DNA of 64,000 bases from an uncultured Candidatus Binatia bacterium (GTDB taxonomy: Bacteria; Desulfobacterota; Binatia; UBA9968; JAJDTQ01): assembly GCA_965242525.1 (NCBI GenBank), contig OZ251459.1, forward strand, positions 3,616,001 to 3,680,000. Reading direction: 5' to 3'. Position numbers and translations under genes: made by a program. The notes under the pieces were generated by a model. The model ran no database searches and was not told where the DNA came from. It saw nothing but the letters and a program-made list of their open reading frames with translations. Below, piece by piece: positions 9,327 to 52,054 of the stretch (the first letter of the stretch is position 1; each line of letters begins with the position of its first letter).

Positions 9327-9664
9327 TTCCTTCCCTCCTTTTCGTTGTGGCCTCCCCGACCCGGGGACGGCGTCCGGCCGGCAAGGCGGCCGTCGGCCTT
9401 CCGGTCGAGGCGGATGGCGTCATACTAGAGAAACTCGTCGAATCGCGTCAAGTCCATGAAGGACCCGCGGCGCCCCCCCTCGACCCGGGGGTTATACGCT
9501 TGACCGGCCGGAATTTGCAAATCCACAACAGCGCTTGACACAGGGCCGGAAGGGAAGTTACGGAATAGCCGGGAAAGCACCGGGGCGAGCACACCGGAGG
9601 GAGGCGGCGGTGGCTGACTGGCTCAAGGCGTTCCCCGGCAACGAGAGCGCCGAAACCGAGATCG

Positions 9665-10570: not shown

Positions 10571-10644
10571 GAGGGAGCTCGTCCTGCCCGCCTTGCCGTT
10601 GCTCGCACGGGCCAAGGACGCCGGCCTGACCACATCTGGAATCA

Positions 10645-11019: not shown

Positions 11020-11021
11020 TC

Positions 11022-11471
11022 ATGGGCGAATGCATCCTGAACCGCCTGGGACGGGGGCGCCGGGCCTTCAGCGCCGGCAGCCAGCCCCGGGGCGAGATCA
11101 ACCCCCATACCGTCGAGCTCCTGAAGAAGCTCAACTACGTGACCGACGACCTACGCTGCAAGAGTTGGGACGAGTTCGCGGAACCCGGCGCCCCCGAGAT
11201 GCAATTCGTCTTCACGGTCTGCGACCAGGCCGCCCAGGAAGCCTGTCCGCTATGGCCCGGCCAACCCATGTCCGCCCACTGGGGCATTCCCGACCCGGCT
11301 GCGGCCCGGGGGAACGAAGCCGAGAGGCGGGTGGCCTTCGCCGACGCCTACCGGATGCTGTACAACCGGATCTCGATCTTCGTCAGCCTCCCGCTGGCCT
11401 CCCTCGACCGGCTGACGCTGCAACGGCGCCTGGACCACATCGGGCGGCAAGGCGGACCGGGGGGCGCGTAA
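11022..11471 (+). pseudogene. arsC: 5'-truncated arsenate reductase (LMW-PTP-type ArsC)
   Basis: SAGSQPRG, KSWDEF, FVFTVCDQAAQEACP, HWGIPDPA present; the N-terminal CX5R loop is absent and repeat DNA sits in its place. Confidence 0.8.
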
Positions 11472-11547
11472 CACGATTGCAACAAGCAGTTCATCCGCGT
11501 GTGATGCAAGGGCAACGAGGGCGTAATAAAAGTAATAGACGGTTCAT
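11468..11547 (+). promoter_or_regulatory. Pho-box-like array upstream of pstS
   Basis: GTCAT-like half-sites in 11-bp register: GTAAC 11468, GCAAC 11479, TTCAT 11490, GTGAT 11501, GCAAC 11512, GTAAT 11523; a further pair GTAAT 11532 / TTCAT 11543. Confidence 0.6.
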
Positions 11548-11638
11548 TCCCATCGGGTAGGTTCCCGCCAGGATCGGTGGGGTCCTGCGGCTCGCCGCGG
11601 ACCCGGCGACAAAGGCATCATCCAAGGAGGATCGGACC

Positions 11639-12682
11639 ATGTATGGGAAAGGTGTGCTGAAGGCCGCGGTAGCGGCGCTGGCCGCGGCGGGTCTGGCGGC
11701 CCCGGCGGCGGCGCAACAGCGGGATTACATCCAGATCGTGGGGTCGTCCACGGTCTATCCGTTTACCACGGTGGTGGCCGAGCAGTTCGGCAAGACCACC
11801 AAGTTCAGGACCCCCAAGGTCGAGTCCACGGGCTCGGGCGGCGGCCTGAAGCTCTTCTGCGCCGGCATAGGCGTGGAGCACCCGGACATGACCAACTCGT
11901 CCCGGCGCATCAAGAAGAGCGAGGTCGAGCGTTGCGCCAAAAACGGCGTGGCGGAGATCGTCGAGCTCAAGGTGGGCTACGACGGCATCGCGGTGGCCAA
12001 CTCGAAGAAGAGCGCGGCCCTGAGCCTCTCCCCCCGGGACCTCTACCTCGCTCTGGCCAAGGACGTGCCGGCCAACGCGGACGGGTCCAGGCGGAAGCCG
12101 AACCCCAACAAGATCTGGAAGGACGTGAACGCCAAGCTCCCGGACAAGAAGATCGAGGTGCTGGGGCCCCCGCCCACGTCCGGCACCCGGGACGCGTTCG
12201 TGGAGTTGGTGATGGACGCCGGCTGCAAGACCTTCGCCGGCATCGCGAAGCTCTCCAGGAAGCCCCGCAGGGCGGCCTGCCGCACCATGCGCGAGGACGG
12301 CGCCTTCATCGAGGCGGGCGAGAACGACAACCTCATCGTGCAGAAGCTCGACGCCAACCCCAACGCGTTCGGGATCTTCGGCTTCAGCTTCCTCGACCAG
12401 AACACGGACAAGCTCCGGGGCGCGTCCATCAACGGCGTGGAGCCCGTGTTCGAGACCATCGCCGACGGCAGCTACCCGGTCTCGCGTCCGCTCTACGTCT
12501 ATATCAAGAAGGCCCACCTGGACGTGATCGCCGGCATGAGGGAGTTCCTCGCCGAATACGCCAGCGAGAAGGCGTGGGGCGACGACGGCTACCTGTCCGA
12601 CAAGGGGCTGATCCCCATGCCCAAAGAGGAGCGGGAGCAGTTCTCCGCGGACGTGGAGAACCTGAAGAACCTGGCTCTGTAA
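11639..12682 (+). CDS. pstS: Phosphate ABC transporter substrate-binding protein
   Basis: IVGSSTVYPF, VESTGSGGG, GPPPTSGTRDAF, YPVSRPLY; first gene of a pst operon. Confidence 0.95.
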   Translation: MYGKGVLKAAVAALAAAGLAAPAAAQQRDYIQIVGSSTVYPFTTVVAEQFGKTTKFRTPKVESTGSGGGLKLFCAGIGVEHPDMTNSSRRIKKSEVERCAKNGVAEIVELKVGYDGIAVANSKKSAALSLSPRDLYLALAKDVPANADGSRRKPNPNKIWKDVNAKLPDKKIEVLGPPPTSGTRDAFVELVMDAGCKTFAGIAKLSRKPRRAACRTMREDGAFIEAGENDNLIVQKLDANPNAFGIFGFSFLDQNTDKLRGASINGVEPVFETIADGSYPVSRPLYVYIKKAHLDVIAGMREFLAEYASEKAWGDDGYLSDKGLIPMPKEEREQFSADVENLKNLAL

Positions 12683-12802
12683 CCCGGCCCCCGGCCACTG
12701 GCCCCGAGCTCGGCTGCGACGGGAGCGACCCGTCGCAGCCGGACCCTCGACCCGACCCCTCACAGCGAGGATGGAAACTGCCGACGCAACGGGCTCCCTG
12801 AC

Positions 12803-14182
12803 ATGGGCTCTCCAAGTTTGATCCTCGCGTTGCTGGGCTTGAGCTCGGTAAGCTACTACCTGGGCTGGAGACGGTCCATCTCCCTGGCCCGGGGGACCGT
12901 CCGCAACCTGCACTCCCTTCCCGGCTACCACGGCCTCTACACCGCCCTGTGGGTCGCGGTCCCGGCCCTGCTGCTGCTGGCCGTCGGAGTGACCCTCCAA
13001 GGCCCCGTCATCACCCGGATCGTGGTGGCCGACCTGCCCCAGGAGGTCCGGGACCTGCCGCCCGAGCGGCTCAACCTGGTCGTCAACGACATCCGGAACC
13101 TGGCGTCGGGCAACATCGCCTCCCGCAAGAGCCCCGCCATGATCGCCGCGGCGGAACGGTACGTGCGCTTGCAGGGCTACGGCGCCATCGCCCTCACCGT
13201 GGCGGTGCTCGCGCTGGCCACGGCCTGCGGCGCCCTGTCCTGGCGCACCATCCAACCCGGCAGGCGCGCGCGCAACTCGGTGGAGCGGATCATCCTGGGC
13301 TTCCTGATGGCCAGCTCCACCATCGCCATCCTCACCACCGTGGGCATCGTGCTGTCGGTGTTGTTCGAATCGCTCCGCTTCTTCCAGACGGTGCCGTTGC
13401 GCGAGTTCCTCTTCGGTGTCGAGTGGAGCCCCCAGACCGCCATCCGAGCCGACCAGGTGGGCGCGTCCGGGGCCTTCGGCGCGGTGCCGCTGTTCGCCGG
13501 CACCCTGCTCATCTCCTTCATCGCCATGCTGGTGGCCGTGCCCGTGGGCCTCATGTCGGCCATCTACCTCACCGAGTACGCCCGGCCCCGGGTGCGCGCA
13601 GTGGTCAAGCCCCTGCTGGAGGTGCTGGCCGGCATCCCCACCGTGGTCTATGGGTTCTTCGCGGCCCTGACGGTGGCGCCGGTCATCCGCGGATGGGGAG
13701 AGGCCCTGGGCCTCGACGTGGCGTCCGAGAGCGCCCTGACCGCGGGGCTGGTCATGGGGGTGATGATCATCCCGTTCGTCTCCTCGCTGTCCGACGACGT
13801 CATCAACGCCGTGCCCCAGGCCATGCGCGACGGCGCCTACGCCCTGGGGTCCACCCCGTCCGAGACCGTCAAGCGGGTGGTCATCCCCGCGGCCCTCCCC
13901 GGCATCGTCGGCGGCGTCCTGCTGGCCATCTCGCGGGCCATCGGGGAGACCATGATCGTGGTCATGGCCGCGGGGCTCGCCGCCAACCTGACGGCCAACC
14001 CGCTGCAGGCCGTCACCACGGTGACGGTGCAGATCGTGACCCTGCTGACCGGGGACCAGGAGTTCGACAGCCCCAAGACCCTGGCCGCGTTCGCCCTGGG
14101 CCTGGTGCTCTTCGTCGTGACCCTGGGACTGAACGTGGTGGCGCTGCACGTGGTGCGCAAGTACCGGGAGCAGTACGAATAA
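12803..14182 (+). CDS. pstC: Phosphate ABC transporter permease
   Basis: LAGIPTVVYGFF, SRAIGETMIV. Confidence 0.95.
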   Translation: MGSPSLILALLGLSSVSYYLGWRRSISLARGTVRNLHSLPGYHGLYTALWVAVPALLLLAVGVTLQGPVITRIVVADLPQEVRDLPPERLNLVVNDIRNLASGNIASRKSPAMIAAAERYVRLQGYGAIALTVAVLALATACGALSWRTIQPGRRARNSVERIILGFLMASSTIAILTTVGIVLSVLFESLRFFQTVPLREFLFGVEWSPQTAIRADQVGASGAFGAVPLFAGTLLISFIAMLVAVPVGLMSAIYLTEYARPRVRAVVKPLLEVLAGIPTVVYGFFAALTVAPVIRGWGEALGLDVASESALTAGLVMGVMIIPFVSSLSDDVINAVPQAMRDGAYALGSTPSETVKRVVIPAALPGIVGGVLLAISRAIGETMIVVMAAGLAANLTANPLQAVTTVTVQIVTLLTGDQEFDSPKTLAAFALGLVLFVVTLGLNVVALHVVRKYREQYE

Positions 14183-14186
14183 GCCC

Positions 14187-15476
14187 ATGGAACCGAGACC
14201 CGGCAACACCATGGAGAGCGTGCGCGGCACCCTTCCCCGCAGGCGCCGGGCCGAGCGCCGCTTCCGGAACATCGGGCGCTTGGCGGTGCTGGTGGGACTC
14301 GCGTTCCTGGCGCTGATGTTCGTCAGCATCGTCGCCAAGGGTTATCCCGCCTTCCGGCAGACCTGGGTGAAGCTGCCGGTCTTCTTCGACCCGCAGGTCA
14401 TCGACCCCAACGGCACGGGCGACGAGGAGGTCATCGGGGCGGCCGACTACGGCGCCCTGGTCAAGGCGTCCGTGCGCTCGCTCTTTCCCGAGGTGGGAGG
14501 CAGGAGGGACCGCCGGGACCTGGGCAAGCTCGTCAGCCCGGGCGCCGTCTTCCAGCTACGCCGCATGACCCTGGAGGACCCCTCGCTGGTGGGCGCCCGA
14601 GTCGAGGTATGGGCGCCCGCCAACGACGACTACGACATGCTCCGCAAGGGGAACGTCGATCGGAGCCTGCCGGAGAGCGACCGGCGGCTGTCCGACAGGC
14701 AGATCGGGTGGTTCGACCGGCTCGCCGCGGACGGGCGGGTGGAGTCGCGGTTCAACGAGACCTTCTTCACCGCGGGGGACTCCCGGGAGCCCGAGCTCGC
14801 GGGCGTCTGGGGCGCGGTCATGGGGTCGTTCTTCACCCTCACGGTCACCCTGCTGTTGTCGTTCCCGCTGGGGGCGGCCACCGCGGTCTATCTGGAGGAG
14901 TTCGCTCCCCGGAACCGCCTGACCGACCTGATCGAGGTGAACATCAACAACTTGGCCGCGGTGCCCTCCATCGTGTTCGGCCTGCTGGGCCTGGCGGTGT
15001 TCATCAACTTCTTCGGCCTGCCGCGCTCCGCGCCGCTGGTGGGAGGGCTGGTGCTCACCCTCATGACCCTCCCCACCATCATCATCGCCGGCCGCGCCGC
15101 GCTCAAGTCGGTGCCCCCTTCCATCCGGGACGCGGCGTTGGGGGTGGGCGCGTCGAAGATGCAGATGATCGTGCACCACGTGCTGCCTCTGGCCATGCCG
15201 GGCATGTTGACCGGCGCCATCATCGGCATGGCCCGGGCCCTGGGCGAGACCGCGCCGCTGCTGATGATCGGCATGGTGGCCTTCGTGGTGGACATCCCCC
15301 AGGGGGTCACGGACGCGGCCACCGCGCTTCCGGTGCAGATCTTCCTGTGGGCGGACAGCCCCGAACGCGCCTTCGTGGAGCGCACTTCCGCGGCCATCAT
15401 GGTGCTGCTGGCGTTCCTCCTCGCCATGAACGCCTTGGCCGTGGTGCTGCGGGGGCGCTTTGAAAGACGCTGGTAA
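14187..15476 (+). CDS. pstA: Phosphate ABC transporter permease
   Basis: NLAAVPSIVFGLLG, ARALGETAPL. Confidence 0.95.
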   Translation: MEPRPGNTMESVRGTLPRRRRAERRFRNIGRLAVLVGLAFLALMFVSIVAKGYPAFRQTWVKLPVFFDPQVIDPNGTGDEEVIGAADYGALVKASVRSLFPEVGGRRDRRDLGKLVSPGAVFQLRRMTLEDPSLVGARVEVWAPANDDYDMLRKGNVDRSLPESDRRLSDRQIGWFDRLAADGRVESRFNETFFTAGDSREPELAGVWGAVMGSFFTLTVTLLLSFPLGAATAVYLEEFAPRNRLTDLIEVNINNLAAVPSIVFGLLGLAVFINFFGLPRSAPLVGGLVLTLMTLPTIIIAGRAALKSVPPSIRDAALGVGASKMQMIVHHVLPLAMPGMLTGAIIGMARALGETAPLLMIGMVAFVVDIPQGVTDAATALPVQIFLWADSPERAFVERTSAAIMVLLAFLLAMNALAVVLRGRFERRW

Positions 15477-39726: not shown

Positions 39727-39797
39727 TGGGAAAGCGCGTCCTTCGACTTCGCTTCGCTACGCTCAGGACGAACGGGGGCAATTGTTCAGGGGTTTCC
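39727..39797. repeat. Family B MITE core plus right end
   Basis: GGGAAAGCGCGTCCTTCGAC...AATTGTTCAGGGGTTTCC. Confidence 0.7.
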
Positions 39798-39878: not shown

Positions 39879-40631
39879 CTACGGTTCGCCTGACCGGACC
39901 GCCTCCGGGTCTCCTTCGCCCACGAGCGCGCAATAGTAGCGCCAGGAGGACTCCACCGCGTTGCCCCGCTTGCGTTTCTGTCGGGTGATGACCGCGATCT
40001 CGTGGTCGGGGATCACGTGCGGCGCGCCCAGCAGCGCGGCGCGGTAGTTCATCTCCGCCAGCTCATTGACCTTGATGGCGGTGACCGTCGCCTCTTCCAC
40101 GCTGGCCCCTGCGGTGGTGAGGCCGTGGCTGCGCATGAGGCAGGCGGGCTTGTCGCCCATGACCCCGGCGAACTCGCGCCCGAGGTCGTGGTCGGACACC
40201 GTGACGCTCCGTTCGTAGGTGGGGATGCCCTGCGCCAGGAGCCGGATGCTGGTGGGGTCGTAGGCGCCGTAGATGGGCAACAGGGGCTTCCGGCAGATGG
40301 TGAAGAGCACCACCGTGGCCGGGTGCACGTGGATGACGCTGTGCACGTCCGTGCGGGTGCGGTAGAGCCAACCGTGGATGTGGACTTCCTGGGGCGGGTC
40401 CAGGTGGTCCGACCCGGACAGCTTGCGGCCTTCCCGGTCCACCAGGATCACGTCTTCGGGGCGGGTGAACCGCACCCCGGTCTCTCCCGGACCCCGGGCG
40501 CGGACGAGGAAGGTGTCGGTCCCGGGCACGCGCGCGCTCACGTGGCCGCTGGCGGCCTTGGTCAGGTCGAGCTTGCCCAGGATGCGCGAGGCGAGCGCCA
40601 CCCGGGCTCGGAGTTCCTCCGTCGAGTCCAT
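39879..40631 (-). CDS. Class II aldolase/adducin family protein
   Basis: GHVSAR, EVHIH..Y..R.DV.SVIHVHP, LMRSHG. Confidence 0.9.
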   Translation of the reverse strand: MDSTEELRARVALASRILGKLDLTKAASGHVSARVPGTDTFLVRARGPGETGVRFTRPEDVILVDREGRKLSGSDHLDPPQEVHIHGWLYRTRTDVHSVIHVHPATVVLFTICRKPLLPIYGAYDPTSIRLLAQGIPTYERSVTVSDHDLGREFAGVMGDKPACLMRSHGLTTAGASVEEATVTAIKVNELAEMNYRAALLGAPHVIPDHEIAVITRQKRKRGNAVESSWRYYCALVGEGDPEAVRSGEP

Positions 40632-40656
40632 CCCGTCCCCTGCGCCTCGGCCTCCG

Positions 40657-41826
40657 CTACCGGCTGGCGGCCTGGCGCAGGCGCTTGTTGAGCTCGGGAC
40701 CCACCAGGGACTCGGCCAACCTGGTGTCGAGCATCCGGTTCCGCTCCGGGTCGCGCATCACGCCCTTGGGGTCGTCCCCCGCCTCCATCCGGTCCATCTC
40801 CCGGTTCATCATCTCCCGCAGCATGACGATGCCGCGGTCCGAGGTGGCCAGCCGCTCGGTGGTGCGGTCGGCGATGGGTCCCTGGGTCTCCCAGGCCATG
40901 TGGTCCTGGCACTGCACTTGGTCCATGCGGAAGCGGGCGAAGGGGTGCAGCGCGTCGGGCGGGTCCTTGTAGGGGGCGACGTACTCCACCTCGGGCTCCG
41001 CGTCGTCCTCCATGCGTCCGTCTTCGTTGCGGTGGAAGCGGACGAAGAAGATCCGCGTGTGGGTGTCGTCGATGGGGACGCGGATCTGGGTGCAGTTGGC
41101 CTGCCGCAGGATGTTCGGAAAGATCAGCGGGTGCTCGTCGCTGTGGCCGCTGGTGTAGGTGCGGCGCTTCATGATCCCCAGCGGGAACTCGTAGAACTCG
41201 AAGCCGGCCACGTCGTCGGTGAACCCCCGCGCCACGCTCGCCGGCGTCCGTCCCCGCAACGCGGTGTCCTGGTGCAGCACCGGCAGGTGCGCCGGGTCCA
41301 CCGAGTTCTCCATGGCCTGGAACCAGTTGCAGTCGAGCCGGGGCTGCACGTGGATGGCGCGCTTGCCGTCCCGGCGCGCCCAGAGGTCGTAGTCGGGGAT
41401 CAACGGTTGCGGTTGCGGCCCCATGTAGGTCCAGTAGAGTCCGATGAAGCGTCGGACGGGATAGGCTTTCTGCCTGACGGTGAGGCGGAACCGGCTGTCC
41501 CGGGGCTCGGCCGGCGTCTCCAGGCAGTTGCCCTCCACGTCGTAGAGCCAGCCGTGGTAGGCGCAGGCGAGGCCCCGCTCTTCCACCCGCCCGTAGGAGA
41601 GGGAGGCGCCCCGGTGGGCGCAACGGTCGTCGATGAGTCCCACCGCTCCGCTACGGTCCCGGAACAGCGCCAAGTTCTCCCCGAGCATGCGCACCAGGTG
41701 GACCGGCTGCTCCTCCGTGAGTTCCCGGGCCGCCGCCACCGGCAGCCAGTAGCGCCGCAGCAGGTCGCCGGCCGGCGTCCCCGGGCCGACCCGGGTCAAG
41801 CGATCGTTCTGTTCCTGGGTCAGCAT
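40657..41826 (-). CDS. Rieske non-heme iron oxygenase (paralog 3)
   Basis: CAH..CAYHGW; ENSVDPAHLPVLH. Confidence 0.92.
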   Translation of the reverse strand: MLTQEQNDRLTRVGPGTPAGDLLRRYWLPVAAARELTEEQPVHLVRMLGENLALFRDRSGAVGLIDDRCAHRGASLSYGRVEERGLACAYHGWLYDVEGNCLETPAEPRDSRFRLTVRQKAYPVRRFIGLYWTYMGPQPQPLIPDYDLWARRDGKRAIHVQPRLDCNWFQAMENSVDPAHLPVLHQDTALRGRTPASVARGFTDDVAGFEFYEFPLGIMKRRTYTSGHSDEHPLIFPNILRQANCTQIRVPIDDTHTRIFFVRFHRNEDGRMEDDAEPEVEYVAPYKDPPDALHPFARFRMDQVQCQDHMAWETQGPIADRTTERLATSDRGIVMLREMMNREMDRMEAGDDPKGVMRDPERNRMLDTRLAESLVGPELNKRLRQAASR

Positions 41827-41850
41827 GGCTCGCAACTCCTTTCGGCCCCG

Positions 41851-42996
41851 TCAGAAGGGGCACGGCGCCTGGTGCTCCAGGCGGACCTCCCGCCGTTCCC
41901 TGGACGAGCGCAGCATGGCCAGGCAGACCTCCAGGGTCGCCTTGCCCCAGGTCCCGTCCGGGAACACCGGCCGTTCCTCCACCAGGGCCGCGCGAAGCTC
42001 CATGAGCTCCGCGGCCCGGCCGTGGCGCGGCCCGCAGGGCGCCTGCTCCCGGCCCTCCTGGGTATAGACGTAGAGTCCGTCCGGGGACTGGCGTATGACC
42101 CCGCGTTCGCAACTCACGATGGTCAGGCCGAAGAAGGGCTGGCTCATCCGGTCCCCGGACCGGGCCCTCTTTGCGGCGAGTCGATATTTTTCCCCGGGGT
42201 CCATGGCGCCGGCCAGCCGTTCCCCCCGCGCCTTCCGCTCCATCCGATACCCGCCTTCGCCGATGTCCCAGGTGAGCTCGGTCACGTCGAAATAGCCATA
42301 GCCGTTGAAACTCATACTGGCAACGGCGCCGTCCTCGAACTCCAGCATGGCCGCGAAGTTCCCTTCGGTGTCGAAGTTCGGGTCCCACCGCCCGGTGACC
42401 GCGCGCACGCTCCGTACCATGCCCCCGCCCAGGCACCGGACGATGTCGGTCTGGTGGGGGCCCTGGCGGTACACCAGTCCGCCGCCCTTGTCCGTGTCCA
42501 CCTCGGAAGCGATCCGCGGCCGCTGGAGCCAGTCGTTGTAGTTCATGGTCTGGATGTGGATGACGCGCCCCAACCGACCCGAACTCACGATCTCGCGCAT
42601 GCGGCGCACCGGCGGGTCATAGACCTTGGAGTGGCCCTGGAGTAGCTTGACCCCGTTCCGCGCAGCCGCGGCCACCATGCGGTCCGCCTCCTCCAGCGAC
42701 ACCGCCATGGGCTTCTCGGTGATGACGTGCTTGCCGTGCTCCGCGGCCACCACCGTATGCTCCGCATGGAGCACGTTGGGAGTCGCCACCCACACCGCGT
42801 CCACCGCCTCCGACCGGCACATGTCCGCCACGTTGTCGAAGGTCTCCGCCCCATGCCTCCCGGCGAACTCTTCGAGCGCTTCGGGGCGGATGTCCGCCCC
42901 CGCGGCAAGCTCCACCCCCGGCGCCTTGTGGACCACCGAAAGCACCTGCCGCGCCGCGGCTCCGAGTCCGGCAATGCCGAGCCTGAGACGTTCCAA
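41851..42996 (-). CDS. Gfo/Idh/MocA oxidoreductase (paralog of 27651-28835)
   Basis: GIAGLG, WVATPNVLH, TEKPMA, QGPHQTDIVR, QPFFG..SCERG. Confidence 0.88.
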   Translation of the reverse strand: MERLRLGIAGLGAAARQVLSVVHKAPGVELAAGADIRPEALEEFAGRHGAETFDNVADMCRSEAVDAVWVATPNVLHAEHTVVAAEHGKHVITEKPMAVSLEEADRMVAAAARNGVKLLQGHSKVYDPPVRRMREIVSSGRLGRVIHIQTMNYNDWLQRPRIASEVDTDKGGGLVYRQGPHQTDIVRCLGGGMVRSVRAVTGRWDPNFDTEGNFAAMLEFEDGAVASMSFNGYGYFDVTELTWDIGEGGYRMERKARGERLAGAMDPGEKYRLAAKRARSGDRMSQPFFGLTIVSCERGVIRQSPDGLYVYTQEGREQAPCGPRHGRAAELMELRAALVEERPVFPDGTWGKATLEVCLAMLRSSRERREVRLEHQAPCPF

Positions 42997-42998
42997 CC

Positions 42999-43085
42999 GA
43001 GACCTCCGAAAACACCCTGGCCAACCGCCTTTAAGCAGAGGGGTTTCGGGCTGTCAAGATTACCCGTACGAAAGCCGGAAGAGCC
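42999..43085. mobile_element. Short IS-end relic/MITE at the left edge of the defence island
   Basis: Right end GAAAGCCGGAAGAGCC equals the reverse complement of the family C end at 34175; left end GAGACCTCCGAAAA. Confidence 0.5.
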
Positions 43086-43098
43086 GTCCTGCTTCAAC

Positions 43099-43329
43099 CT
43101 ATCCGCTGCTCGAAGTTGCAAGTTCCCGCAGCATCTTCTCACGGATTCCCAGGATCGAGATTCCGACGACTTCCCCGCGCGCCTCGTCGTATCGGACAAC
43201 GATACCCTCTCCAATATCGACGCCTACAGCGGGTTTCGGCGTATCGACAGAGATGTAGAGGACATCCGCCTCCCCATCGTAATCCCAATCCAGATTGCGC
43301 TTGCTTTCGAGGATTCTCAACGCTTCCAT
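43099..43329 (-). CDS. DUF2283 family small protein
   Basis: DYDGEADVLYI, GIVVRYD..GEVVGISI. Confidence 0.85.
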   Translation of the reverse strand: MEALRILESKRNLDWDYDGEADVLYISVDTPKPAVGVDIGEGIVVRYDEARGEVVGISILGIREKMLRELATSSSG

Positions 43330-43393
43330 AGGGTTCCGGTCGCATTCCTTTCACTCTTGCGTTGCCACAGCAAAGTTGGAAGATGCCTTTCGT

Positions 43394-44545
43394 TCATCCG
43401 AAGAAACTCAACTGCTGCACATCTATGGGATTCGTCCTGGGCAGGGCCACCTCTCCAACGGTTAGTCCAGATTCAAGCAAGGTGCGAACTTCCGCAATGT
43501 CGGCCGCCACCTTGACTTCTGTGCCTTCTTTCGCTGGAGTGAGCAAAAGGACTTCACGGCCATCGATGCCCTGTTCCATCAGGAGAGCTTCACTGTGTGT
43601 ACTGACGAGGATCTGGCGACGGCGATTGCGCTGCATTCGGGAGATGAGAGCCGCAAGCTGCGAAACAATGGCCGCGTTCAGCGAAAGCTCCGGTTCCTCC
43701 AGCAACAGCAGCGAATCGCCCTCCAGTAGAGACCACAGAAACCCGATCAGCCGAAGGGTGCCGTCGGAAAACTGACCTTCCCTCTGCCAACCTGCCTTCG
43801 GACGCCAATGAGAGTACAGCGCCTGCAGATGCGGACGCCCTGTAGCCGAATCCCGGGTGAATTGGAGTTGTTCGAACTGCAGCACAGCGATTTTCAGCGC
43901 CTTTTCGATCTTGGACAGACGGGATCGGCGGGTTTTCTCGCTCGTTTTCGCCAAACGCTCCAGAAGCCCCTGTCCGAAAGGGTCGTCTTCGACAATACGG
44001 CCTTGTATGGAATCGGCAAAGCGAAGGAGTTGAGGAACCACGTGCAGATAGGTGATCGACTGGAAGAACCGCACAACGTCCCGGAACTCCCCATTGGAGT
44101 TTATCTGTTCCAAGAAAGTCTGGCTGAGTCGGTTCGGGTCCCTTTCGTCATCTTGATTTGGCCTGTCAAGCAGTTGTCGGCCTTCCTTCCACACCCGTTC
44201 ATGGGTGAGGTACGGGAGGCGGGCCCCTCGTGTTTCGTGGCGAAAACCAAGAGCATAGCGCCACAACGGATCCTCGCCCGAGTTGTTGGCAAGGTGGACT
44301 TCCATTGCGATTTCCGGGCGTCGCGCCGTCAGGCTCCGAATCTTCGACACGCCCCCCCGATCCTTGACCGCCTTCTGAAGCCCTCCCCCCTCGGACTTGG
44401 CGATGTCCCGGAGGAAACGGAATACGTCCAGCAGGTTCGACTTGCCCGAAGCGTTGGCTCCAACAATGAACTGGCGCTTGCGGAGATCGACATCCACTGC
44501 TTGGAAATTGCGCCAGTTCTTGACCCATATTCGGCTGACGATCAT
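43394..44545 (-). CDS. ABC-superfamily ATPase (AAA_21/AAA_15 type, non-transport)
   Basis: NWRNF, IVGANASGKSN, FSDGT signature, LLLLEEPE, VSTHS; no long coiled coil. Confidence 0.88.
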   Translation of the reverse strand: MIVSRIWVKNWRNFQAVDVDLRKRQFIVGANASGKSNLLDVFRFLRDIAKSEGGGLQKAVKDRGGVSKIRSLTARRPEIAMEVHLANNSGEDPLWRYALGFRHETRGARLPYLTHERVWKEGRQLLDRPNQDDERDPNRLSQTFLEQINSNGEFRDVVRFFQSITYLHVVPQLLRFADSIQGRIVEDDPFGQGLLERLAKTSEKTRRSRLSKIEKALKIAVLQFEQLQFTRDSATGRPHLQALYSHWRPKAGWQREGQFSDGTLRLIGFLWSLLEGDSLLLLEEPELSLNAAIVSQLAALISRMQRNRRRQILVSTHSEALLMEQGIDGREVLLLTPAKEGTEVKVAADIAEVRTLLESGLTVGEVALPRTNPIDVQQLSFFG

Positions 44546-44680
44546 GTCTGGTATCCTATCATTGGTACGACCAGGCCAAGGATTCGATCCTGACGGCGCC
44601 GTTATCCACCATGTCTATTTCCAGGTGATGCCCCTTGAGTAATCCCAGCGTGTGACGGGAAAATGTAGTGGGGTGGGCGG

Positions 44681-45610
44681 TCAAGGCCGCGCCGGTTCGC
44701 GGAAGACCTCCGTCTGATGCCATTTTACGAATTCGGGTTCGGGATCATGGCGGCGGTTTTGAGGGGTCCGGAGCGGTTTGTCGTGGAAGTCGAGGAACCA
44801 ATGGACCGGATAACTGCGGCCATTGACGTCGCTGGAAACGACGATCCGATAGCCTGAATCGCCCGCCTTCAGCCCCACGGCTCCCCGGTCGAAGGCCTTG
44901 TGGTGAAGCCCGCACAACGCCAATCCATTGGTGATTTCGTCCGGACCGCCAGCCGCATGCCACTTGATGTGAGCGGCTTCGAGACCGATCAGTTCGTTTC
45001 CGAGACGCACGTCGAAGTCGCAGATGGCGCAACGTTGCTCATATTCACGCAGGACTTCGACCCGGAAGGCCCGGTCACGCGGGCGAGCGGGACTGTCCCG
45101 CATTTCCCAAGAGTACGGAATACCGGTGACGTCACGGATCTCTTGATGCAGAGACTCGGGGAAGTGGCTGTCCAGGAGTCGCTGCGCGGCTTCGCGTGCG
45201 AGGTCCGGCCGTTGACGCAGAAGATCATACACCGGCTCAGGGAATCCGCCTTCCACGCCGCCCTTGTGCAGCTCCCGGACGAGAAGGTCTCCTCTGGCCG
45301 TGCGGGACAATTCCTCGCTGCTGGCAATCTCCCATAGCCCATCGGCGGGCAGACGACCGAACGGACGCTCCGGTTGCGGGCGTGTCCCCGGGCGCGTCTC
45401 GCGAGGCCGACCAAACCGTTGCAGCAGCTTCGTCAGCATCTCCTCGATCTCCCGATAGGGAGCGAAGCGTTCCCGTTCGTTGAGGAACCGACCGAGCGCC
45501 AGCAGGAGAAGCAGCGGCTTGTGCGGCGCGCGCTGCCCACGCTTCTTCCAGACGTTGATCCGCTCGATCCTCTCGAGGAAGTCGCTGCGCGTCGTGGGTA
45601 CAGGGGCCAT
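44681..45610 (-). CDS. Sulfur-binding-domain (SBD)-HNH endonuclease, PT-DNA-dependent restriction family
   Basis: N-terminal RAPHKPLLLL and P..PFxRL..DGLW; C-terminal CAIC..LEAAHI..GGPD..NGLALCGLHHKAFDRG. Confidence 0.85.
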   Translation of the reverse strand: MAPVPTTRSDFLERIERINVWKKRGQRAPHKPLLLLLALGRFLNERERFAPYREIEEMLTKLLQRFGRPRETRPGTRPQPERPFGRLPADGLWEIASSEELSRTARGDLLVRELHKGGVEGGFPEPVYDLLRQRPDLAREAAQRLLDSHFPESLHQEIRDVTGIPYSWEMRDSPARPRDRAFRVEVLREYEQRCAICDFDVRLGNELIGLEAAHIKWHAAGGPDEITNGLALCGLHHKAFDRGAVGLKAGDSGYRIVVSSDVNGRSYPVHWFLDFHDKPLRTPQNRRHDPEPEFVKWHQTEVFREPARP

Positions 45611-45668
45611 GAGCTGGTCTTGGAGCGCCTTTCACTGACCAAGGCGCACCGCGCCGCTCTCGAGGGCG

Positions 45669-46391
45669 TCAACGACCGGCAACGCCATTCCCGAGACTCT
45701 CCGAGACGTGGGTTCGTAGCCGGGGCTCGATGTGTTCCTTGCCGACACCCTGCATGGAGGCGTGGAAACGCTCGTCGCCGACAAGCCTGAAGAACCTGGA
45801 CCCGAGACGACCGGTCGCGCCGTAGAGGCCCAACCGTTCGATGCCGGATGCCAGGATCGAAGCCCTGGCTGCCTGCGTGAGCCTGCCAAGTTCCTCGACA
45901 TTCTCCTCGGCTACCGAGCCAAGGAAAACGTAACGTTTTCGGATTATCGGACGCATGCCCAGGATTTCGTCTATGCACGCTTCCACAGATCGCCCCGATC
46001 GTTCCCGGAGCTGTACGACTTGCTGAACTTCGCTGCTGTTGAGTCCGTGCGAGAGGATGGCCCGAGCGACGACGCGTTGTTCTTCGGCGTCTCGAACCCT
46101 CGCTAACTCTACAGCGGACGTGAAGCCAATAAAATGCTTTCCGGCGCCCCAACCGACTAGCCGCTGAAGGTCGTCGGGTAAGTCGAGAATGCGCAACAGA
46201 CGGCGGATGTGTCCAGTCCCGTTGAGGTGAATGGCCTTAGCGCAATCTTGCAGGGAAACACCTTCCTCACGAGCCTTACGAATAAGCGAGCCTACCGCTA
46301 TCGGTGATAGCGGCCGGCCTTTCTTGTGCGTCCCGTAACCAACGGACATTCGCAGATTCCCAAGCTCCAGAGCGTTCAACCCGGCGAGCAT
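45669..46391 (-). CDS. ParB/Spo0J-type HTH protein lacking the N-terminal CTPase domain
   Basis: LSPI..G.SLQDCAKAI..HIRRLLRILDLPDDLQRLV..IGFTSAVELAR..EEQ..A..I...GLNSSEV follows the ParB central-domain pattern; start placed at ATG 46391. Confidence 0.65.
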   Translation of the reverse strand: MLAGLNALELGNLRMSVGYGTHKKGRPLSPIAVGSLIRKAREEGVSLQDCAKAIHLNGTGHIRRLLRILDLPDDLQRLVGWGAGKHFIGFTSAVELARVRDAEEQRVVARAILSHGLNSSEVQQVVQLRERSGRSVEACIDEILGMRPIIRKRYVFLGSVAEENVEELGRLTQAARASILASGIERLGLYGATGRLGSRFFRLVGDERFHASMQGVGKEHIEPRLRTHVSESLGNGVAGR

Positions 46392-46455
46392 TCGTTCTAC
46401 TTTCCAAGGAAACACAAGATTTCCGAGACGAGATACACGTGGGAAGCAACCTTCG

Positions 46456-47652
46456 TCATGCCGCGACTCCGGTCTCCTCCGGTTCTTCGACCCCGGAGAA
46501 ACTCCGTTCGAGCGCCTGCCGTGCATCCTCGCGGATTTCGTCCCGCCACCAGACGTCTTCAATGGAGTCGATTTCCGCGGGCAGGATCAACGATTCTCCA
46601 ATCCGCCGTTCCAAAGTGCGGAGTCTTTCGAGTATCTCGCGCCGTACCGCCAAGGTGAAGGGGCCGAACACGAGGGACCCGTCGTCCCTTTGCTTCGGGT
46701 TCCCGTCTCTCCGAACCGGCAGGCGGTTGGCGTTGTCTTCCCGCAGTGCGATCAGCCACTCCCGGAAGTCGAACAGGGCCTCCATCTTCTCGGCTTCGGA
46801 GTGCCCGGAGTCGATCAGGCCGCGCAGGCTGCGGTCCTTCTTCACCACCGTGCAGGTCCAGCACCCGAAGCGGGGCGAAGTGCTGCCGCACGAAGGCGCC
46901 TGCTCCTTCGTCATCACCAGTGGGCATTCTCCGCCGCCCGCATTGCGGTAGAGCGTGATGAGGCGGCGGTGGGTCCCGCCCCACGGGGGTCTGCGCTGCA
47001 TGAGCGTCATCCAGACGTCATCGTCGTCCAGATCCGCGAGCGGAGCGAACATCCGGCAGCCGTCCACCGAACCGTGCGGGTTCATCCGATCCGCGGCCAC
47101 CTTGCGCCGGTCCATGGTCCGCTGCCGGTTCTGGGATTCGGCGCGCCGCGTGCCCACGAGGAGAACGGAGTGCTTGGTATCTCGCGTGATCCGTTCCAGG
47201 AGCTTGGTCGTGGGCAGGATCTTCATCCTGTCCGTGCACCACCGGAAGTTCCTCGTGGGCGGGATGTAGCCGCGTCCGATGACACAGACCCAGAAGGTCT
47301 GGTCGATGCAGGGTTCGGTGACGTGCGTCTCAATGGGAAGCTCTCCCTTTTCCGCGGCCTTGTCGATCATCTTCAGCGAGTCCCTGAGATGCCGGATGAC
47401 CAGGGGCGACTCCACCAAGGTGTCGTTCCCGACGACGTGCACTGGACGACGCTTTCGCTCTTCGGCGGGCAACTCCGCGACGGTCTCCCAGACCAACTGA
47501 AGCAGCAGGGTGGAGTCCTTCCCGCCGGAGTAGGCGACGACCCACGGGTGGCGGTGCCGCTTGCCGTACTCCTTCCGAAGCACGCGCCGGACGGCTTCGA
47601 GGCGACCCGGCAAGGTCGCGATGGCGTTGCTCGAACCTGCGGATGCGGTCAT
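46456..47652 (-). CDS. dndC: DNA phosphorothioation protein DndC (PAPS-reductase fold, Fe-S), short form
   Basis: PWVVAYSGGKDST, NDTLVESP, FWV..IGRGY, FRWCTDRMKI.P, GTRRAES, ECPLV, SCG..RFGCWTCTVVKKDRSL, GPFT. Confidence 0.92.
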   Translation of the reverse strand: MTASAGSSNAIATLPGRLEAVRRVLRKEYGKRHRHPWVVAYSGGKDSTLLLQLVWETVAELPAEERKRRPVHVVGNDTLVESPLVIRHLRDSLKMIDKAAEKGELPIETHVTEPCIDQTFWVCVIGRGYIPPTRNFRWCTDRMKILPTTKLLERITRDTKHSVLLVGTRRAESQNRQRTMDRRKVAADRMNPHGSVDGCRMFAPLADLDDDDVWMTLMQRRPPWGGTHRRLITLYRNAGGGECPLVMTKEQAPSCGSTSPRFGCWTCTVVKKDRSLRGLIDSGHSEAEKMEALFDFREWLIALREDNANRLPVRRDGNPKQRDDGSLVFGPFTLAVRREILERLRTLERRIGESLILPAEIDSIEDVWWRDEIREDARQALERSFSGVEEPEETGVAA

Positions 47653-48878
47653 CGTCCGATCCTCCTTAGGGCCGTCACCGTTTCCCGGACCGACCGTCCC
47701 GCGCGGTCGATCTCCCTGGCCGTCGTGAAGCGGCCAAAGCTGAACCGCACCGAGGACAGGGCCCGGTCCGTGTCGTAGCCGAGGGCGAGCAGCACGTGCG
47801 ACGGTTCGATGTCGGCCGAGGTGCAGGCGGAGCCCGACGAAACGGCGACGACGCCGAGGGCAACCATCAGCGCTTCCGCTTCGACGCCGGCAAAGGAGAC
47901 GCTGAGGATCCCGGGAACACGGTGCTGTGCGTTACCGTTGATTTCGACCTCCTCGACCCGGTCCAGGTGGGCGCGGAACCGGCGGTCCAGCGCTCGGACG
48001 TGCTTCGCGTCGGTCGTGCGGCGCTGCCGCACGAGGCGGGCTGCGTGGCCCATGCCCGCGATCTGGTGCGTGGGAAGCGTGCCCGAGCGCAGCCCGAACT
48101 CCTGCCCGCCCCCGTGAACTTGGGGAACCAACTCGGCGCGGAGGCGCCCGCGGACACGGAGCGCGCCGACCCCCTTCGGGCCGTACATCTTGTGCCCGCT
48201 GATAGAGATCATATCGGCAGCCGCGAGGGTTTCCATAGGGAGCCGCGCCGCACCCTGTACCGCGTCCACGTGGAGCAACGCCCCGTGCTGGTGGACGAGG
48301 GGCTCCAGGGCCGCAATGTCCGTGACGGTCCCGGTCTCGTTGTTCACGTGCATCAACGACACCAGGATGGTGCCCGGCCGCAACGCTTTCGAGAGGTTTT
48401 CCGGGGTGATCCTCCCGGTATCGTCAGGCTTGACACGGGACGCAGCGAACCCCTGCGTCTCCAGCCAGGCGGTCGAGTCCAGGACGGCCCGGTGTTCCAG
48501 CGCGGACGTGACTACGTGGTCGCCCCGGTCCCGGCGGGCGAGCGCGGCGCCCTTCAGGGCCAGGTTGATGGCTTCCGTCGCGCCGGAAGTCCAGACGACC
48601 TCCTCGGGTTGCGAGGACAGCAGCGCCGCGACCTCCCCCCGGGCGCTCTCGACCGCTTCCGACGCCGCATGGCCGAAGGCATGGGTCACCGACGCGGGGT
48701 TCCCGAAAGCCCCGTCCACCGTGAGGAAATCGCTCATGGTGCGGGCCACCGCAGGGTCCACGGGCGTGGTCGCCGCGTAATCGAGATAGATGGCGTCCCG
48801 GTCCGCAGGCTCCGCGGCCGGACCGGAAACGGCACAGGATGTTGATGAGTCGGCCTGCTGGAGAGGCATGTGGGTCAC
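47649..48878 (-). CDS. dndA: Cysteine desulfurase (DndA/IscS type)
   Basis: YLDYAATTP, SGATEA, SGHKMYGPKG, RSGT, SSGSACTS; 4-bp stop/start overlap with dndC. Confidence 0.88.
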   Translation of the reverse strand: MTHMPLQQADSSTSCAVSGPAAEPADRDAIYLDYAATTPVDPAVARTMSDFLTVDGAFGNPASVTHAFGHAASEAVESARGEVAALLSSQPEEVVWTSGATEAINLALKGAALARRDRGDHVVTSALEHRAVLDSTAWLETQGFAASRVKPDDTGRITPENLSKALRPGTILVSLMHVNNETGTVTDIAALEPLVHQHGALLHVDAVQGAARLPMETLAAADMISISGHKMYGPKGVGALRVRGRLRAELVPQVHGGGQEFGLRSGTLPTHQIAGMGHAARLVRQRRTTDAKHVRALDRRFRAHLDRVEEVEINGNAQHRVPGILSVSFAGVEAEALMVALGVVAVSSGSACTSADIEPSHVLLALGYDTDRALSSVRFSFGRFTTAREIDRAGRSVRETVTALRRIGR

Positions 48879-48982
48879 CGGGGTCTCCCTCGGGAGGCGG
48901 CCTGAGACAATTGTACCACCCTAGCACGGTCCGGGCCACCCGCGTCAACCGGCCCCCGGTAGCGCCCCATTCCCTGTGGACC

Positions 48983-49075
48983 GACGCTGCCGGAACGGCG
49001 TTGCTTGAAAACGGATCGGTTTTCGTTCAGGGTCCAACCGTGGGAGTTTGCCGGGAACGTCGCCTGCGCCGCGTG
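48983..49075 (+). repeat. Degenerate direct copy of the promoter and first codons of the AAA+ gene at 50692
   Basis: GACGCTG.CGGAACGGCGTTGC..TGAAAA...GCCGGGAACGTC.CCTGCGCCGCGTG shared with 50634-50727. Confidence 0.7.
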
Positions 49076-49681: not shown

Positions 49682-49843
49682 GCGTCCTTCGACTTTGCTT
49701 CGCTACGCTCAGGATGAACGGGGGGACTTCGCTTCGCTACGCTCAGGACGAACGGAGGGATTTCACTTCGCCATGCTCGGGACGAACGGGGGACTTCGCT
49801 TTGCCATGCTCAGGACGAACGGGGATAATTGTTCAGAGCTTTT
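49682..49843. repeat. Family B MITE with four tandem internal units
   Basis: Repeated (A)CTT(C/T)GC..(C)GCTC(A/G)GGA(C/T)GAACGG units followed by AATTGTTCAGAG. Confidence 0.75.
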
Positions 49844-50217: not shown

Positions 50218-50328
50218 GGAACGTCTGTTCCATTCCGGCTTGAACTCCCTCTCTCCTGTGGGAAAGCGCGTCCTTCGACTTCGCTTCGCTACGCTCAGGA
50301 CGAACGGGGACAATTGTTCAGAGTTTCC
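50218..50328. mobile_element. Family B MITE
   Basis: GGAACGTCTG ... TTCAGAGTTTCC ends with one internal unit. Confidence 0.75.
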
Positions 50329-50415: not shown

Positions 50416-50556
50416 GCAACCTCTGAACAATCGAGACATCCGGGATGGATTCCCGATTCCCTCACCCTGACGCCCCTATTCCCGTTCGTCCTGAGCGTAG
50501 CGTAGCGAAGTCGAAGGACGCTCTCATGCTCTCTGTCCCGATTGTTTAGAGGTTCC
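50416..50556. mobile_element. Family A MITE with CTAG target duplication
   Basis: CTAG|GCAACCTCTGAACAATCG ... CGATTGTTTAGAGGTTCC|CTAG. Confidence 0.8.
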
Positions 50557-50655
50557 CTAGCATAATCCGGGCCAACCGCGTGAACCACACCCGGCGGCGC
50601 CCGATCCGGCGCTACGACAGGGACCTGCGGATGGACGCTGGCGGAACGGCGTTGC

Positions 50656-50690
50656 CTTGAAAAATGAGCGGTTCCCGTTCATATTTCAAG
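50656..50690. promoter_or_regulatory. Palindrome directly upstream of the AAA+ ATPase start
   Basis: CTTGAAAAATGAGCGG-TTC-CCGTTCATATTTCAAG (14 of 16 arm match). Confidence 0.55.
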
Positions 50691-50691
50691 G

Positions 50692-51852
50692 ATGGAAGTT
50701 CGCCGGGAACGTCACCTGCGCCGCGTGAGCCTGTTGTTGCGGGAGTTTCCGGTGGTGGCGCTCCTCGGAGCGAGGCAGGTGGGGAAATCGACCCTCGCCC
50801 GGCAACTCGTGGCGTCGCGCCGCGGGCCCGCCACATGGTTCGACCTGGAGAACCCGGCCGACCTCGCCCGCCTGGAGGACCCCGGCCTGGAGTTGCGGCC
50901 GTTGCGGGGACTCGTGGTCCTCGACGAAATCCACCGGCTCCCCGGCGTGTTCCCGCTCCTGCGGGTCCTGGCGGACCGGCCCCGGACGCCGGCCCGCTTC
51001 CTCGTGTTGGGCAGCGCCTCTCCCGACCTCCTGAACCAGACATCGGAGACCCTCGCCGGGCGCGTGGCCTTCCACGAGCTCGACGGCCTCGGGTTGCACG
51101 AGGTCGGCGACCTGGAACGGCTCTGGTTGCGCGGCGGCTTTCCGTTGTCCTATCTCGCCCGGTCGGCGCCCGCGAGCCGGCGCTGGCGCGACAGCTTCGT
51201 TCGGACGTTCCTCACCCGCGACCTCCCCGAGCTGGGGAACCTGGTCCCGTCCACGACCTTGCGCCGCTTCTGGACGATGCTCGCCCACTGGCATGGCCAG
51301 TTGTGGAACGGCGCCGAATTCGGCCGCGCCTTCGGCGTTTCCCACACGACCGTAAGGCGCTACCTCGACCTCCTGTCGTCGGTCTTCGTGGTGCGCCAGT
51401 TGCAGCCTTGGCACGAGAACCTCGGCAAGCGGCAGGTGCGCTCCCCGAAGGTCTATATCGGCGACTCCGGCATCCTCCACGCGTTGCTGGGCCTGACCAC
51501 TCGCGAGGAAGTGGTTTCCCATCCCAAGGTAGGCGCATCCTGGGAGGGTTTCGTGATCCAGCAGGTGGTCCATCTGCTCGCCGCGGACAACGACCAGTGT
51601 TTCCACTGGAAGACGCATTCGGGAGCGGAACTCGACCTGCTGGTAGTGGCGGGCAACCGACGTTACGGCTTCGAGGTCAAGCGTACGGAGGCCCCGCGGT
51701 TGACGGCTTCCATGCACTCGGCCTTCGAGACCCTGGGACTCGATTCCCTGGACGTCGTGCACGCCGGGACCGAAGCCTACGCGCTGGCCCCCCGCATCCG
51801 GGCCGTGCCCGCCGCAGGGCTCGCCGCGAGGCTGCGTTCCCTGCGCCGGTAA
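50692..51852 (+). CDS. AAA+ ATPase (AAA_14) with DUF4143 / PD-(D/E)XK-like C-terminus
   Basis: GARQVGKST, VLDEIH, LAGR, RGGFP, SPKVYIGDSG, ELDL..FEVK. Confidence 0.92.
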   Translation: MEVRRERHLRRVSLLLREFPVVALLGARQVGKSTLARQLVASRRGPATWFDLENPADLARLEDPGLELRPLRGLVVLDEIHRLPGVFPLLRVLADRPRTPARFLVLGSASPDLLNQTSETLAGRVAFHELDGLGLHEVGDLERLWLRGGFPLSYLARSAPASRRWRDSFVRTFLTRDLPELGNLVPSTTLRRFWTMLAHWHGQLWNGAEFGRAFGVSHTTVRRYLDLLSSVFVVRQLQPWHENLGKRQVRSPKVYIGDSGILHALLGLTTREEVVSHPKVGASWEGFVIQQVVHLLAADNDQCFHWKTHSGAELDLLVVAGNRRYGFEVKRTEAPRLTASMHSAFETLGLDSLDVVHAGTEAYALAPRIRAVPAAGLAARLRSLRR

Positions 51853-51874: not shown

Positions 51875-52054
51875 GGAACGTCTGATCAATTCCGGCCCGA
51901 ACTCCCTCTCCCTGTGGGAAAACGCGTCCTTCGACTTCGCTTCGCTACGCTCAGGACGAACGGGGGAGGACTTCACTTTGCCACGCTCAGGACGAACGGG
52001 GGGACTTCACTTTGCCGTGCTCAGGACGAACGGGGACAATCGTTCAGAGTTTCC
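51875..52054. mobile_element. Family B MITE with three internal units
   Basis: GGAACGTCTGATC ... GTTCAGAGTTTCC. Confidence 0.75.

Follow-up and report, generated by a model that had tools for sequence, protein, structure and literature searches.

Published phosphorothioate (PT) writers, as outlined in PMC12707154, combine an enzyme of the 3'-phosphoadenosine-5'-phosphosulfate (PAPS) reductase type with an ATPase and a DNA-recognition part. In the IscS-DndBCDE-DndI system of Salmonella enterica Cerro 87, a cysteine desulfurase and a DndC writer are accompanied by a PT-sensing DUF262-DUF1524 nuclease, as described in PMC11662687, which names DndI and SspE as the characterised PT-sensing effectors of this architecture. 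TdpABC (PMC12914056) is described as synthesizing PT from a single PAPS-reductase-type gene, tdpC, with no DndD/E or SspB/C partner. Here we examine a locus at positions 43099-48878 of a 64,000-nucleotide stretch (the window) of the genome of an uncultured Candidatus Binatia bacterium (contig OZ251459.1, positions 3,616,001 to 3,680,000). On its minus strand, which carries all genes and gene remnants of the locus discussed below, a dndA-dndC pair is followed by genes for a protein with only the helix-turn-helix (HTH) domain of ParB, an endonuclease with a sulfur-binding domain (SBD) and an HNH domain, an ABC-type ATPase and a DUF2283 protein. All six co-oriented genes of the initial annotation are present with the domains assigned to them. 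Our analysis indicates that they are probably not one integrated system, and that the locus is a mosaic in which a writer pair lacking DndD and DndE has been orphaned beside swapped reader genes.

The dndA-like gene (47649-48878) encodes a pyridoxal-phosphate-dependent cysteine desulfurase of 409 aa (Aminotran_5, 258 bits) and overlaps by 4 bp (47649-47652) with a short dndC (46456-47652, 398 aa). The desulfurase scores 469 bits against PADLOC SspA and 459 bits against PADLOC DndA, and its 403 bits against TIGR03235 lie below the cut-off of 480; a housekeeping IscS-like paralogue (47% identity) is encoded elsewhere in the genome, marking the dndA of the locus as a dedicated extra copy. DndC is a PP-loop ATP pyrophosphatase/sulfurtransferase with Fe-S-type cysteines, which exceeds the TIGR03183 cut-off (337 versus 290.4 bits) but spans only positions 11-338 of the 447 in the profile. 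Its PP-loop (SGGKDS, S42 to S47) and six conserved cysteines (C139, C199, C243, C255, C264 and C267) are kept, in agreement with its earlier description as motif-complete but short. An affinity to SspD or to BrxP (BREX type 4) was not borne out, the scores being 24.6 and 42.5 bits, respectively, against 364 bits for DndC. Likeness to SspABCD-SspE resides in the desulfurase, whose best PADLOC score is that for SspA, and in the DUF262-DUF1524 effector of related loci, which has the architecture of SspE. Compared with Cerro 87, the locus lacks DndB and DndD, its DndC of about 400 aa is without about the last 110 positions of TIGR03183, and its DndI-like gene is a 15-codon stub. The resemblance of the dndA-dndC pair to TdpABC is one of proposed behaviour and was drawn by description only.

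Searches of the source genome (98.96% complete) agreed with the view of the locus as non-canonical and devoid of DndB and DndD and, with less weight, of DndE. The best DndD profile match in this genome reached 28 bits against a cut-off of 245.85, and DndB (PF14072) gave no match there while a control genome responded; the DndB-like protein of the same-genus locus L004, used as a tblastn query, likewise found nothing. DndE and DndH (TIGR03238) were also without a match, and these two blanks carry little weight because every control genome was silent as well. The DndE model does detect a DndE elsewhere (52 bits at locus L087), and proteins this small are easily missed. DndC is a single-copy protein in the genome, which outside the locus holds no orthologue of the DndI-like, ParB_N, MBL (metallo-beta-lactamase) or DndB-like genes of related loci; the best match to the DndI-like protein is only 27% identical.

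A scan of one genome per species returned at least 516 DndC relatives, of which the best 80 (62-93% identity) were analysed by tblastn with the window proteins and the genes of the same-genus locus L003, and by clustering of all open reading frames (ORFs) of at least 120 aa. These 80 loci belong to 12 named phyla, with five loci unassigned, and the median length of DndC in the relatives is 397 aa. dndA lies upstream of dndC in 63 of them. Directly after dndC, a gene for a DUF262-DUF1524 (GmrSD_N + GmrSD_C) nuclease was found in 71 loci by clustering of full-length ORFs and in 75 by tblastn at any length, a count that includes at least the stub in L019. The best PDB match of this nuclease is DndI (9JFL), followed by SspE, and it scores 218 bits against PADLOC HEC-06 and 176 bits, full length, against 'Orf5'; Tyr25 of DndI aligns with a His in the L003 protein. 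Two variants occur behind the nuclease: genes for an SNF2 helicase, a ParB_N protein, an HTH protein and an MBL/beta-CASP-like nuclease, each in 41-42 of the 80 loci, or a small ORF with a gene for a DndB-family (PF14072) protein, in 30 loci, from all of which the HTH gene is absent. No DndD-like cluster was found among the conserved dndC neighbours of the 80 loci by ORF clustering. The hallmark of the clade is the replacement of the ATPase (and of DndE) by a DUF262-DUF1524 gene. The idea that the window locus is a relic that lost dndDE is ruled out on this ground, since a DndD-like cluster was seen next to dndC in 0 of 80 loci and the DUF262-DUF1524 gene stands there instead in 71-75 of them. 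The simpler alternative offered in the initial annotation, a relic cluster that had also gained unrelated genes, comes close to the truth in its loss and gain of genes and fails in naming dndDE as the genes lost.

Profile searches for DndD gave a similar picture. None of 25 same-genus genomes, eight of which carry DndC, has a DndD over the cut-off, and among ten genomes with a family locus that were searched one does; that copy adjoins the decayed remnant of a canonical dndC, 80 kb from the family dndC. Over all 41 genomes there is one case (G035, another genus) in which DndD follows a short DndC at 2.2 kb. The decayed cluster (L087; G006:C8:20000-36000, at 8432-11246) has kept of DndC only a 166-aa C-terminal fragment, behind which DndD is intact and a DndE-like ORF is present. 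The missing part of dndC has its place taken by an AIPR/MzaE-like gene of opposite orientation. The G006 genome also holds a DndD/E-less cassette, 80 kb from this cluster. One same-genus genome (G031) encodes two short DndCs over the cut-off (C1:3003754-3004749 and C18:18979-19971).

The nearest DndCs of cultured bacteria (42-49% identity, 355-379 aa) are encoded on plasmids of Mesorhizobium amorphae, Burkholderia glumae and Aureimonas, in clusters with a small protein, a DndD/CxC-type ABC ATPase (and DndE in one) and FtsK/HerA. Because these short DndCs adjoin a DndD/CxC-type ATPase, short length alone does not denote independence of DndD and DndE; the window clade (at least 62% identity) differs in having the DUF262-DUF1524 gene where the plasmid clusters keep the ABC ATPase. 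More widely, tblastn with DndC matched 2516 plasmid records at less than 60% identity, 1903 of them typed as conjugative. One Streptomyces plasmid (L091:5938-7362) encodes a solitary DndC of 474 aa; DndD is absent from its vicinity, and 1 kb downstream lies a gene for an HNH endonuclease.

The placement of DndC in a tree, as the initial annotation had proposed, put it inside the DndD/E-less clade. The 31 rows of the family group together among 82 DndCs (Shimodaira-Hasegawa-like approximate likelihood ratio support, SH-aLRT, 99), with the window protein nearest to those of L004 and L003. This group has other short DndCs as its sister, three plasmid DndCs of 355-379 aa stand further out, and the long DndCs of the dndBCDE type lie on the opposite side of the tree. 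Canonical references were taken from plasmid records, the G006 cluster offering only its 166-aa fragment, and the row of L053 was left out of the alignment on account of an internal stop codon; this Nitrospirales dndC (L053:10001-11143) may be a pseudogene. Branching within the clade does not follow the phyla, indicating horizontal spread. A search of representative proteins returned 2391 DndC-like sequences, among which the best full-length match was 49% identical and matches of 54-81% were all shorter than 330 aa; the clade cannot be sized from representative proteins because the best full-length match is so distant. Literature searches turned up no description of a DndD/E-less dndAC plus DUF262-DUF1524 cassette, although PMC12914056 notes small similarity clusters of dndC that have DUF262 as a neighbour, and the supplements of that paper and of PMC10853773 may list such neighbourhoods.

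Measured against this cassette, the window has a short DndC of the clade with an overlapping upstream dndA, a nuclease reduced to 15 codons and an accessory module of which only the HTH gene is complete, and two short scars record how this came about. The first is a vestigial 20-codon ORF (46459-46397) whose own ATG overlaps the dndC stop codon as ATGA, an overlap that the DndI-like gene of L003 has and the stub retains. Thirteen of its 15 N-terminal residues are those of the L003 DndI-like protein and its tail resembles the C-terminus of the L003 ParB_N protein, the first 15 DndI-like codons being joined in frame to the last ParB_N codons. A blastn comparison shows that the window lacks about 4.07 kb of L003 (positions 11237-15311), and thereby three genes, those for the DndI-like nuclease, SNF2 and ParB_N. 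The second scar is an 18-codon stub (45688-45632) of the MBL/beta-CASP-like nuclease gene, in which 10 of 18 residues match the N-terminus of the L003 protein before a stop codon. Homology of the window to L003 ends at 45639 by blastn, and the remainder of the MBL gene is replaced by 2.6 kb that hold the SBD-HNH, ATPase and DUF2283 genes. The window HTH gene is therefore a survivor of the module of SNF2, ParB_N, HTH and MBL genes, since the two deletion stubs flank it, and the adjacency of dndC and the HTH gene is a secondary product of the 4-kb deletion. An assembly artefact is ruled out by a contig from a different study (X6, 5938 nt, from a run labelled sponge metagenome) that bridges both scars: it spans 43800-44568 and 44650-48990 at about 97% identity, and its indels within dndC and the ATPase gene total multiples of 3.

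Three same-genus genomes share the flanks of the window and carry dndA-dndC at the same site, as judged by blastn synteny, so that four alleles of one chromosomal site can be compared. In L003, dndA-dndC is followed by the DndI-like, SNF2, ParB_N, HTH and MBL genes, completing a seven-gene cassette; in L004, by the DndI-like gene, a small ORF, a DndB-like gene and an ATPase gene; and in L019, by nothing, the flank following directly. In the window it is followed by the 20-codon stub, the HTH gene, the 18-codon MBL stub and the SBD-HNH, ATPase and DUF2283 genes. The window locus is flanked by genes for a GFO/IDH/MocA oxidoreductase and a Rieske oxygenase.

Sequence comparison shows purifying selection on dndA and dndC, and both genes are intact and fully conserved. 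Neither has an internal stop codon or a frameshift; the desulfurase retains all 64 columns that are at least 97% conserved among 61 relatives, and DndC retains 127 of 127 such columns. Of 172 near-invariant columns none is changed in DndC, the lowest count among 31 rows. The pairwise ratios of nonsynonymous to synonymous substitution rates (dN/dS) to the three same-site genomes are 0.17-0.21 for dndA and 0.135-0.175 for dndC, compared with 0.13-0.29 for two flanking genes, whose dS is similar. The low pairwise dN/dS, with dS like that of the flanks, indicates that the pair is resident and constrained in the genus.

We propose the following course of events. DndA would pass sulfur, drawn from cysteine as a persulfide, to DndC, and the short DndC, judging from what is known of DndC and by analogy with TdpC, may activate the backbone phosphate and insert the sulfur without DndD and DndE; PT writing of this kind is suggested by the conserved three-gene core of the family together with the statement on tdpC alone in PMC12914056. 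In intact relatives, the DndI/SspE-like nuclease, with its DUF262 NTPase and DUF1524 HNH nickase, would read PT and so tell self from invader, with the SNF2, ParB_N, ParB-HTH and MBL genes as an optional add-on module behind it. In the window, the DndI-like, SNF2 and ParB_N genes were lost through an in-frame deletion and only a stub is left of MBL, while dndA, dndC and the ParB-HTH gene survive; the slot now also contains three unrelated pieces, the SBD-HNH, ABC ATPase and DUF2283 genes. With the reader nuclease deleted, the writer is orphaned; it may keep marking the DNA with an epigenetic mark that has no reader, or be idle. The expected targets of the SBD-HNH protein are incoming DNAs that carry PT in other sequence contexts.

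Several observations weigh against this account. At least 516 relatives exist, and the family picture rests on the best 80 of them. A working unit would likewise be expected to have its six genes close-set and in one orientation, as they are here, and to keep its layout in a strain diverged by about 3%, as the X6 contig shows. Pairwise dN/dS mixes the time before and after the deletion and is no proof of selection since then. The writers covered in PMC12707154 need an ATPase and a DNA-recognition subunit, and dndAC alone may therefore be inactive. Finally, an SBD-HNH gene lies within 10 kb of dndC in six of the 80 loci, and SBD-type HNH genes are reported within Dnd loci of 698 taxa (PMC10853773), which may reflect a functional link; in view of that report, the juxtaposition of a writer with an SBD-HNH gene is itself not new.

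A bolder form of the argument is that dndA-dndC is a self-sufficient two-gene PT writer that, like TdpC, does without an ATPase or a DNA-recognition partner, and that the genus retains it at one chromosomal slot as the source of a resident epigenetic mark while the readers behind it are swapped. The readers would then be the DndI-like nuclease with the SNF2/ParB/HTH/MBL module, the DndI-like nuclease with a DndB-like protein, SBD-HNH, a methyltransferase-HNH fusion, or none at all. We regard this as a tentative possibility. The methyltransferase-HNH_4 fusion (588 aa) is encoded directly after dndC in L040 (Vicinamibacterales, 11243-13009), a locus in which the HTH and MBL-like genes are retained.

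The main rival, in our estimate unlikely, is that dndA and dndC are inert relics, the DUF262-DUF1524 protein having been a part of the writer that replaced DndD/DndE or SspB/SspC, so that its deletion ended PT writing. Such a role would fit the presence of the nuclease after dndC in 71-75 of 80 loci and the ATGA overlap seen in L003 and retained in the window stub, as well as the requirement of the known writers outlined in PMC12707154 for a DNA-recognising or nicking part beside the PAPS-reductase-type enzyme and the ATPase. Loss of PT would also explain how a PT-dependent SBD-HNH enzyme is tolerated next door, and conservation of the HTH protein is mildly relaxed, the window copy having 4 changes in 50 near-invariant columns against a median of 1, which places it third among 30. 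Nevertheless, the writer genes have kept their frames and every conserved column, and dndC is also intact in five other loci without the nuclease (L019, L040, L044, L045 and L066). The genome of L003 holds a complete cassette and, 260 kb apart, an SBD-HNH gene, so that the presence of SBD-HNH is no sign of an inactive writer, and TdpC, as described in PMC12914056, is a precedent for a writer of one gene.

The initial annotation had favoured a single defence unit, in which a minimal writer made up of dndA, dndC and the ParB-HTH protein is paired with SBD-HNH, perhaps joined by the ATPase, as its cognate cutter in mark-then-cleave or abortive-infection defence. Apart from the co-orientation, tight spacing and conserved layout already mentioned, this very unlikely reading could draw on the HTH protein, which is predicted to have a DNA-binding fold. 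The longest ORF of its gene is 45669-46562 (at most 297 aa), and the start common to 29 orthologues, at 46391, gives a protein of 240 aa (45669-46391) that is 75% identical to L003 15332-16054. Its match to Pfam HTH_ParB (E 3.5e-4) is under the Pfam cut-off; the AlphaFold2 model is confident (predicted local distance difference test score, pLDDT, 91), and about 110 of its residues match the Noc/ParB/Spo0J DNA-binding domain in Foldseek (E 4e-3; template modelling score 0.80 to 6y93), while the C-terminal alpha/beta half had no structural match in Foldseek. The label "ParB-HTH-only" is thus fair. The role proposed for the protein in engaging DNA for the writer finds no such backing: the HTH gene accompanies the SNF2, ParB_N and MBL genes (42 of 80 loci) and not dndC as such, is absent from the 30 loci with a DndB-like gene, and became a neighbour of dndC only through the 4-kb deletion. 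We therefore see no sign of HTH as a writer subunit.

By its domains, the SBD-HNH protein (44681-45610, 309 aa) is a predicted PT-dependent type IV endonuclease. It scores 312 bits against NF045808 'PT-DNA_restrict' (cut-off 180) and 39 bits against HNH_2 (cut-off 21), and its residues 18-150 match the SBD of ScoMcrA (PDB 5ZMM/5ZMO, E 2e-12). Like the ScoMcrA/SprMcrA-type enzymes (PDB 5ZMM, 5ZMO and 7CC9) it has an N-terminal SBD and an HNH domain, and it differs from them in its length, in the lack of a detected SRA domain and in adjoining a PT writer. Its partnership with that writer is another matter. Five same-genus copies, 63-67% identical, lie at other sites, and their DNA homology is confined to 44680-45603 and so ends at the gene ends; moreover, five of the eight same-genus carriers have no DndC match above E 1e-4. 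Judged by these contexts, the SBD-HNH gene is an independent, free-standing, single-gene type IV unit, and mark-then-cleave defence is consequently unsupported. Of the proposed combination of dndC with ParB-HTH and SBD-HNH, HTH orthologues occur in 42 of the 80 loci and an SBD-HNH gene near dndC in 6; in L009 (8120-9028) and L049 (8870-9829) a homologue with 39% identity takes the usual place of dndA, immediately upstream of dndC and in its orientation, an arrangement that would suit an integrated unit. No sign was seen that DndC and SBD-HNH exclude each other in the genus: among the 25 genomes, eight carry each gene and two, one of them the genome of L003, carry both, compared with about 2.6 expected if they were independent, in a small sample of related genomes.

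The ATPase gene (43394-44545, 383 aa) is shared with an allele of different make-up. Its product matches AAA_21 (122 bits) and, over residues 1-380 against profile positions 1-379 of 382, PADLOC HEC-01A (PDLC04180, 512 bits), and an orthologue (84% identical in protein, 85% in nucleotides) occupies the same flank position in L004, where it follows the DndB-like gene. HEC-01 is described as an ABC ATPase with a TOPRIM protein that gave no phage protection when tested (bioRxiv 10.1101/2024.01.29.577857). The adjacent TOPRIM protein (HEC-01B) is missing from the window, neither SBD-HNH nor DUF2283 containing a TOPRIM domain, and the L004 ATPase is likewise without such a partner. The DUF2283 gene (43099-43329, 76 aa; PF10049, 40.6 bits) is covered by X6 contigs and is not part of the L004 allele, in which the ATPase gene lies about 30 bp from the flank. 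In a same-genus genome without DndC (L094; G024:C1:2441000-2458000), an SBD-HNH gene (8227-9117) lies 2.3 kb from an ATPase homologue (11410-12528) on the opposite strand, 50% identical to that of the window, which hints that the two sometimes travel together.

Base composition is at variance with a single unit as well, GC content falling across the distal genes: it is 0.57-0.65 at 45000-47499 and 0.55-0.58 at 43000-44999, against 0.67-0.73 in the flank at 40000-42999. The lower GC that had been noticed in the distal part is thereby confirmed, and the distal genes look foreign. A scan of the locus found three promoter-like sites (0.8 expected), none usefully placed, and five terminator-like sites (5.4 expected).

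That the short DndC thiolates RNA or a cofactor instead of DNA, the defence genes being mere neighbours, is hardly credible: the best structural matches of its predicted model are indeed tRNA thiolases (NcsA, TtuA), LarE and PAPS reductases, with no solved DndC or TdpC structure among them, but the protein exceeds the equivalog cut-off and groups with DndCs of dndD/dndE operons, and its conserved neighbours are DNA enzymes (DndI-like nuclease, SNF2, ParB, DndB-like). The AlphaFold2 model concerned has a pLDDT of 69 and returned only generic PP-loop and Fe-S thiolase folds in Foldseek, and searches of PDB sequences with the single sequence and with a 31-row profile gave no meaningful match.

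An element resembling repetitive extragenic palindromes (REP), about 44 nt long and complementary at its two ends, recurs in intergenic DNA on both sides of the locus (39733-39776, 49682-49722, 49725-49755, 49792-49827, 50265-50308, 50481-50524 (inverted), 51924-51964, 51969-52000 and 52003-52034) and at three sites in L004. In addition, two adjacent cassettes about 1.65 kb apart share a leader of about 100 nt (48973-49075 and 50624-50727) and a tail (50218-50253 and 51875-51910). In one, a DUF2165 membrane protein is encoded together with an aspartyl-protease-like ORF; in the other, an AAA_14-DUF4143 ATPase. They look as if they had been inserted by one mechanism.

The existence in 12 phyla of a clade of short DndCs with neither an ATPase nor a DNA-recognition partner suggests either a simpler writer chemistry or that the nuclease serves as the DNA handler of the writer. 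The window contributes a decayed allele and, with it, a natural series of four alleles at one site: one with the complete cassette, one with an alternative reader, one without a reader, and one in which the reader is deleted and a type IV nuclease is present. The stretch is also present in runs labelled sponge metagenome. For annotation, the locus is a warning that co-oriented defence genes are not necessarily one system, their adjacency here being revealed as secondary by two short scars. If dndA-dndC is indeed a self-sufficient writer, the window would be a natural knock-out in which it has been maintained without its cognate nuclease; the locus as such is a natural test of whether the writer works alone.

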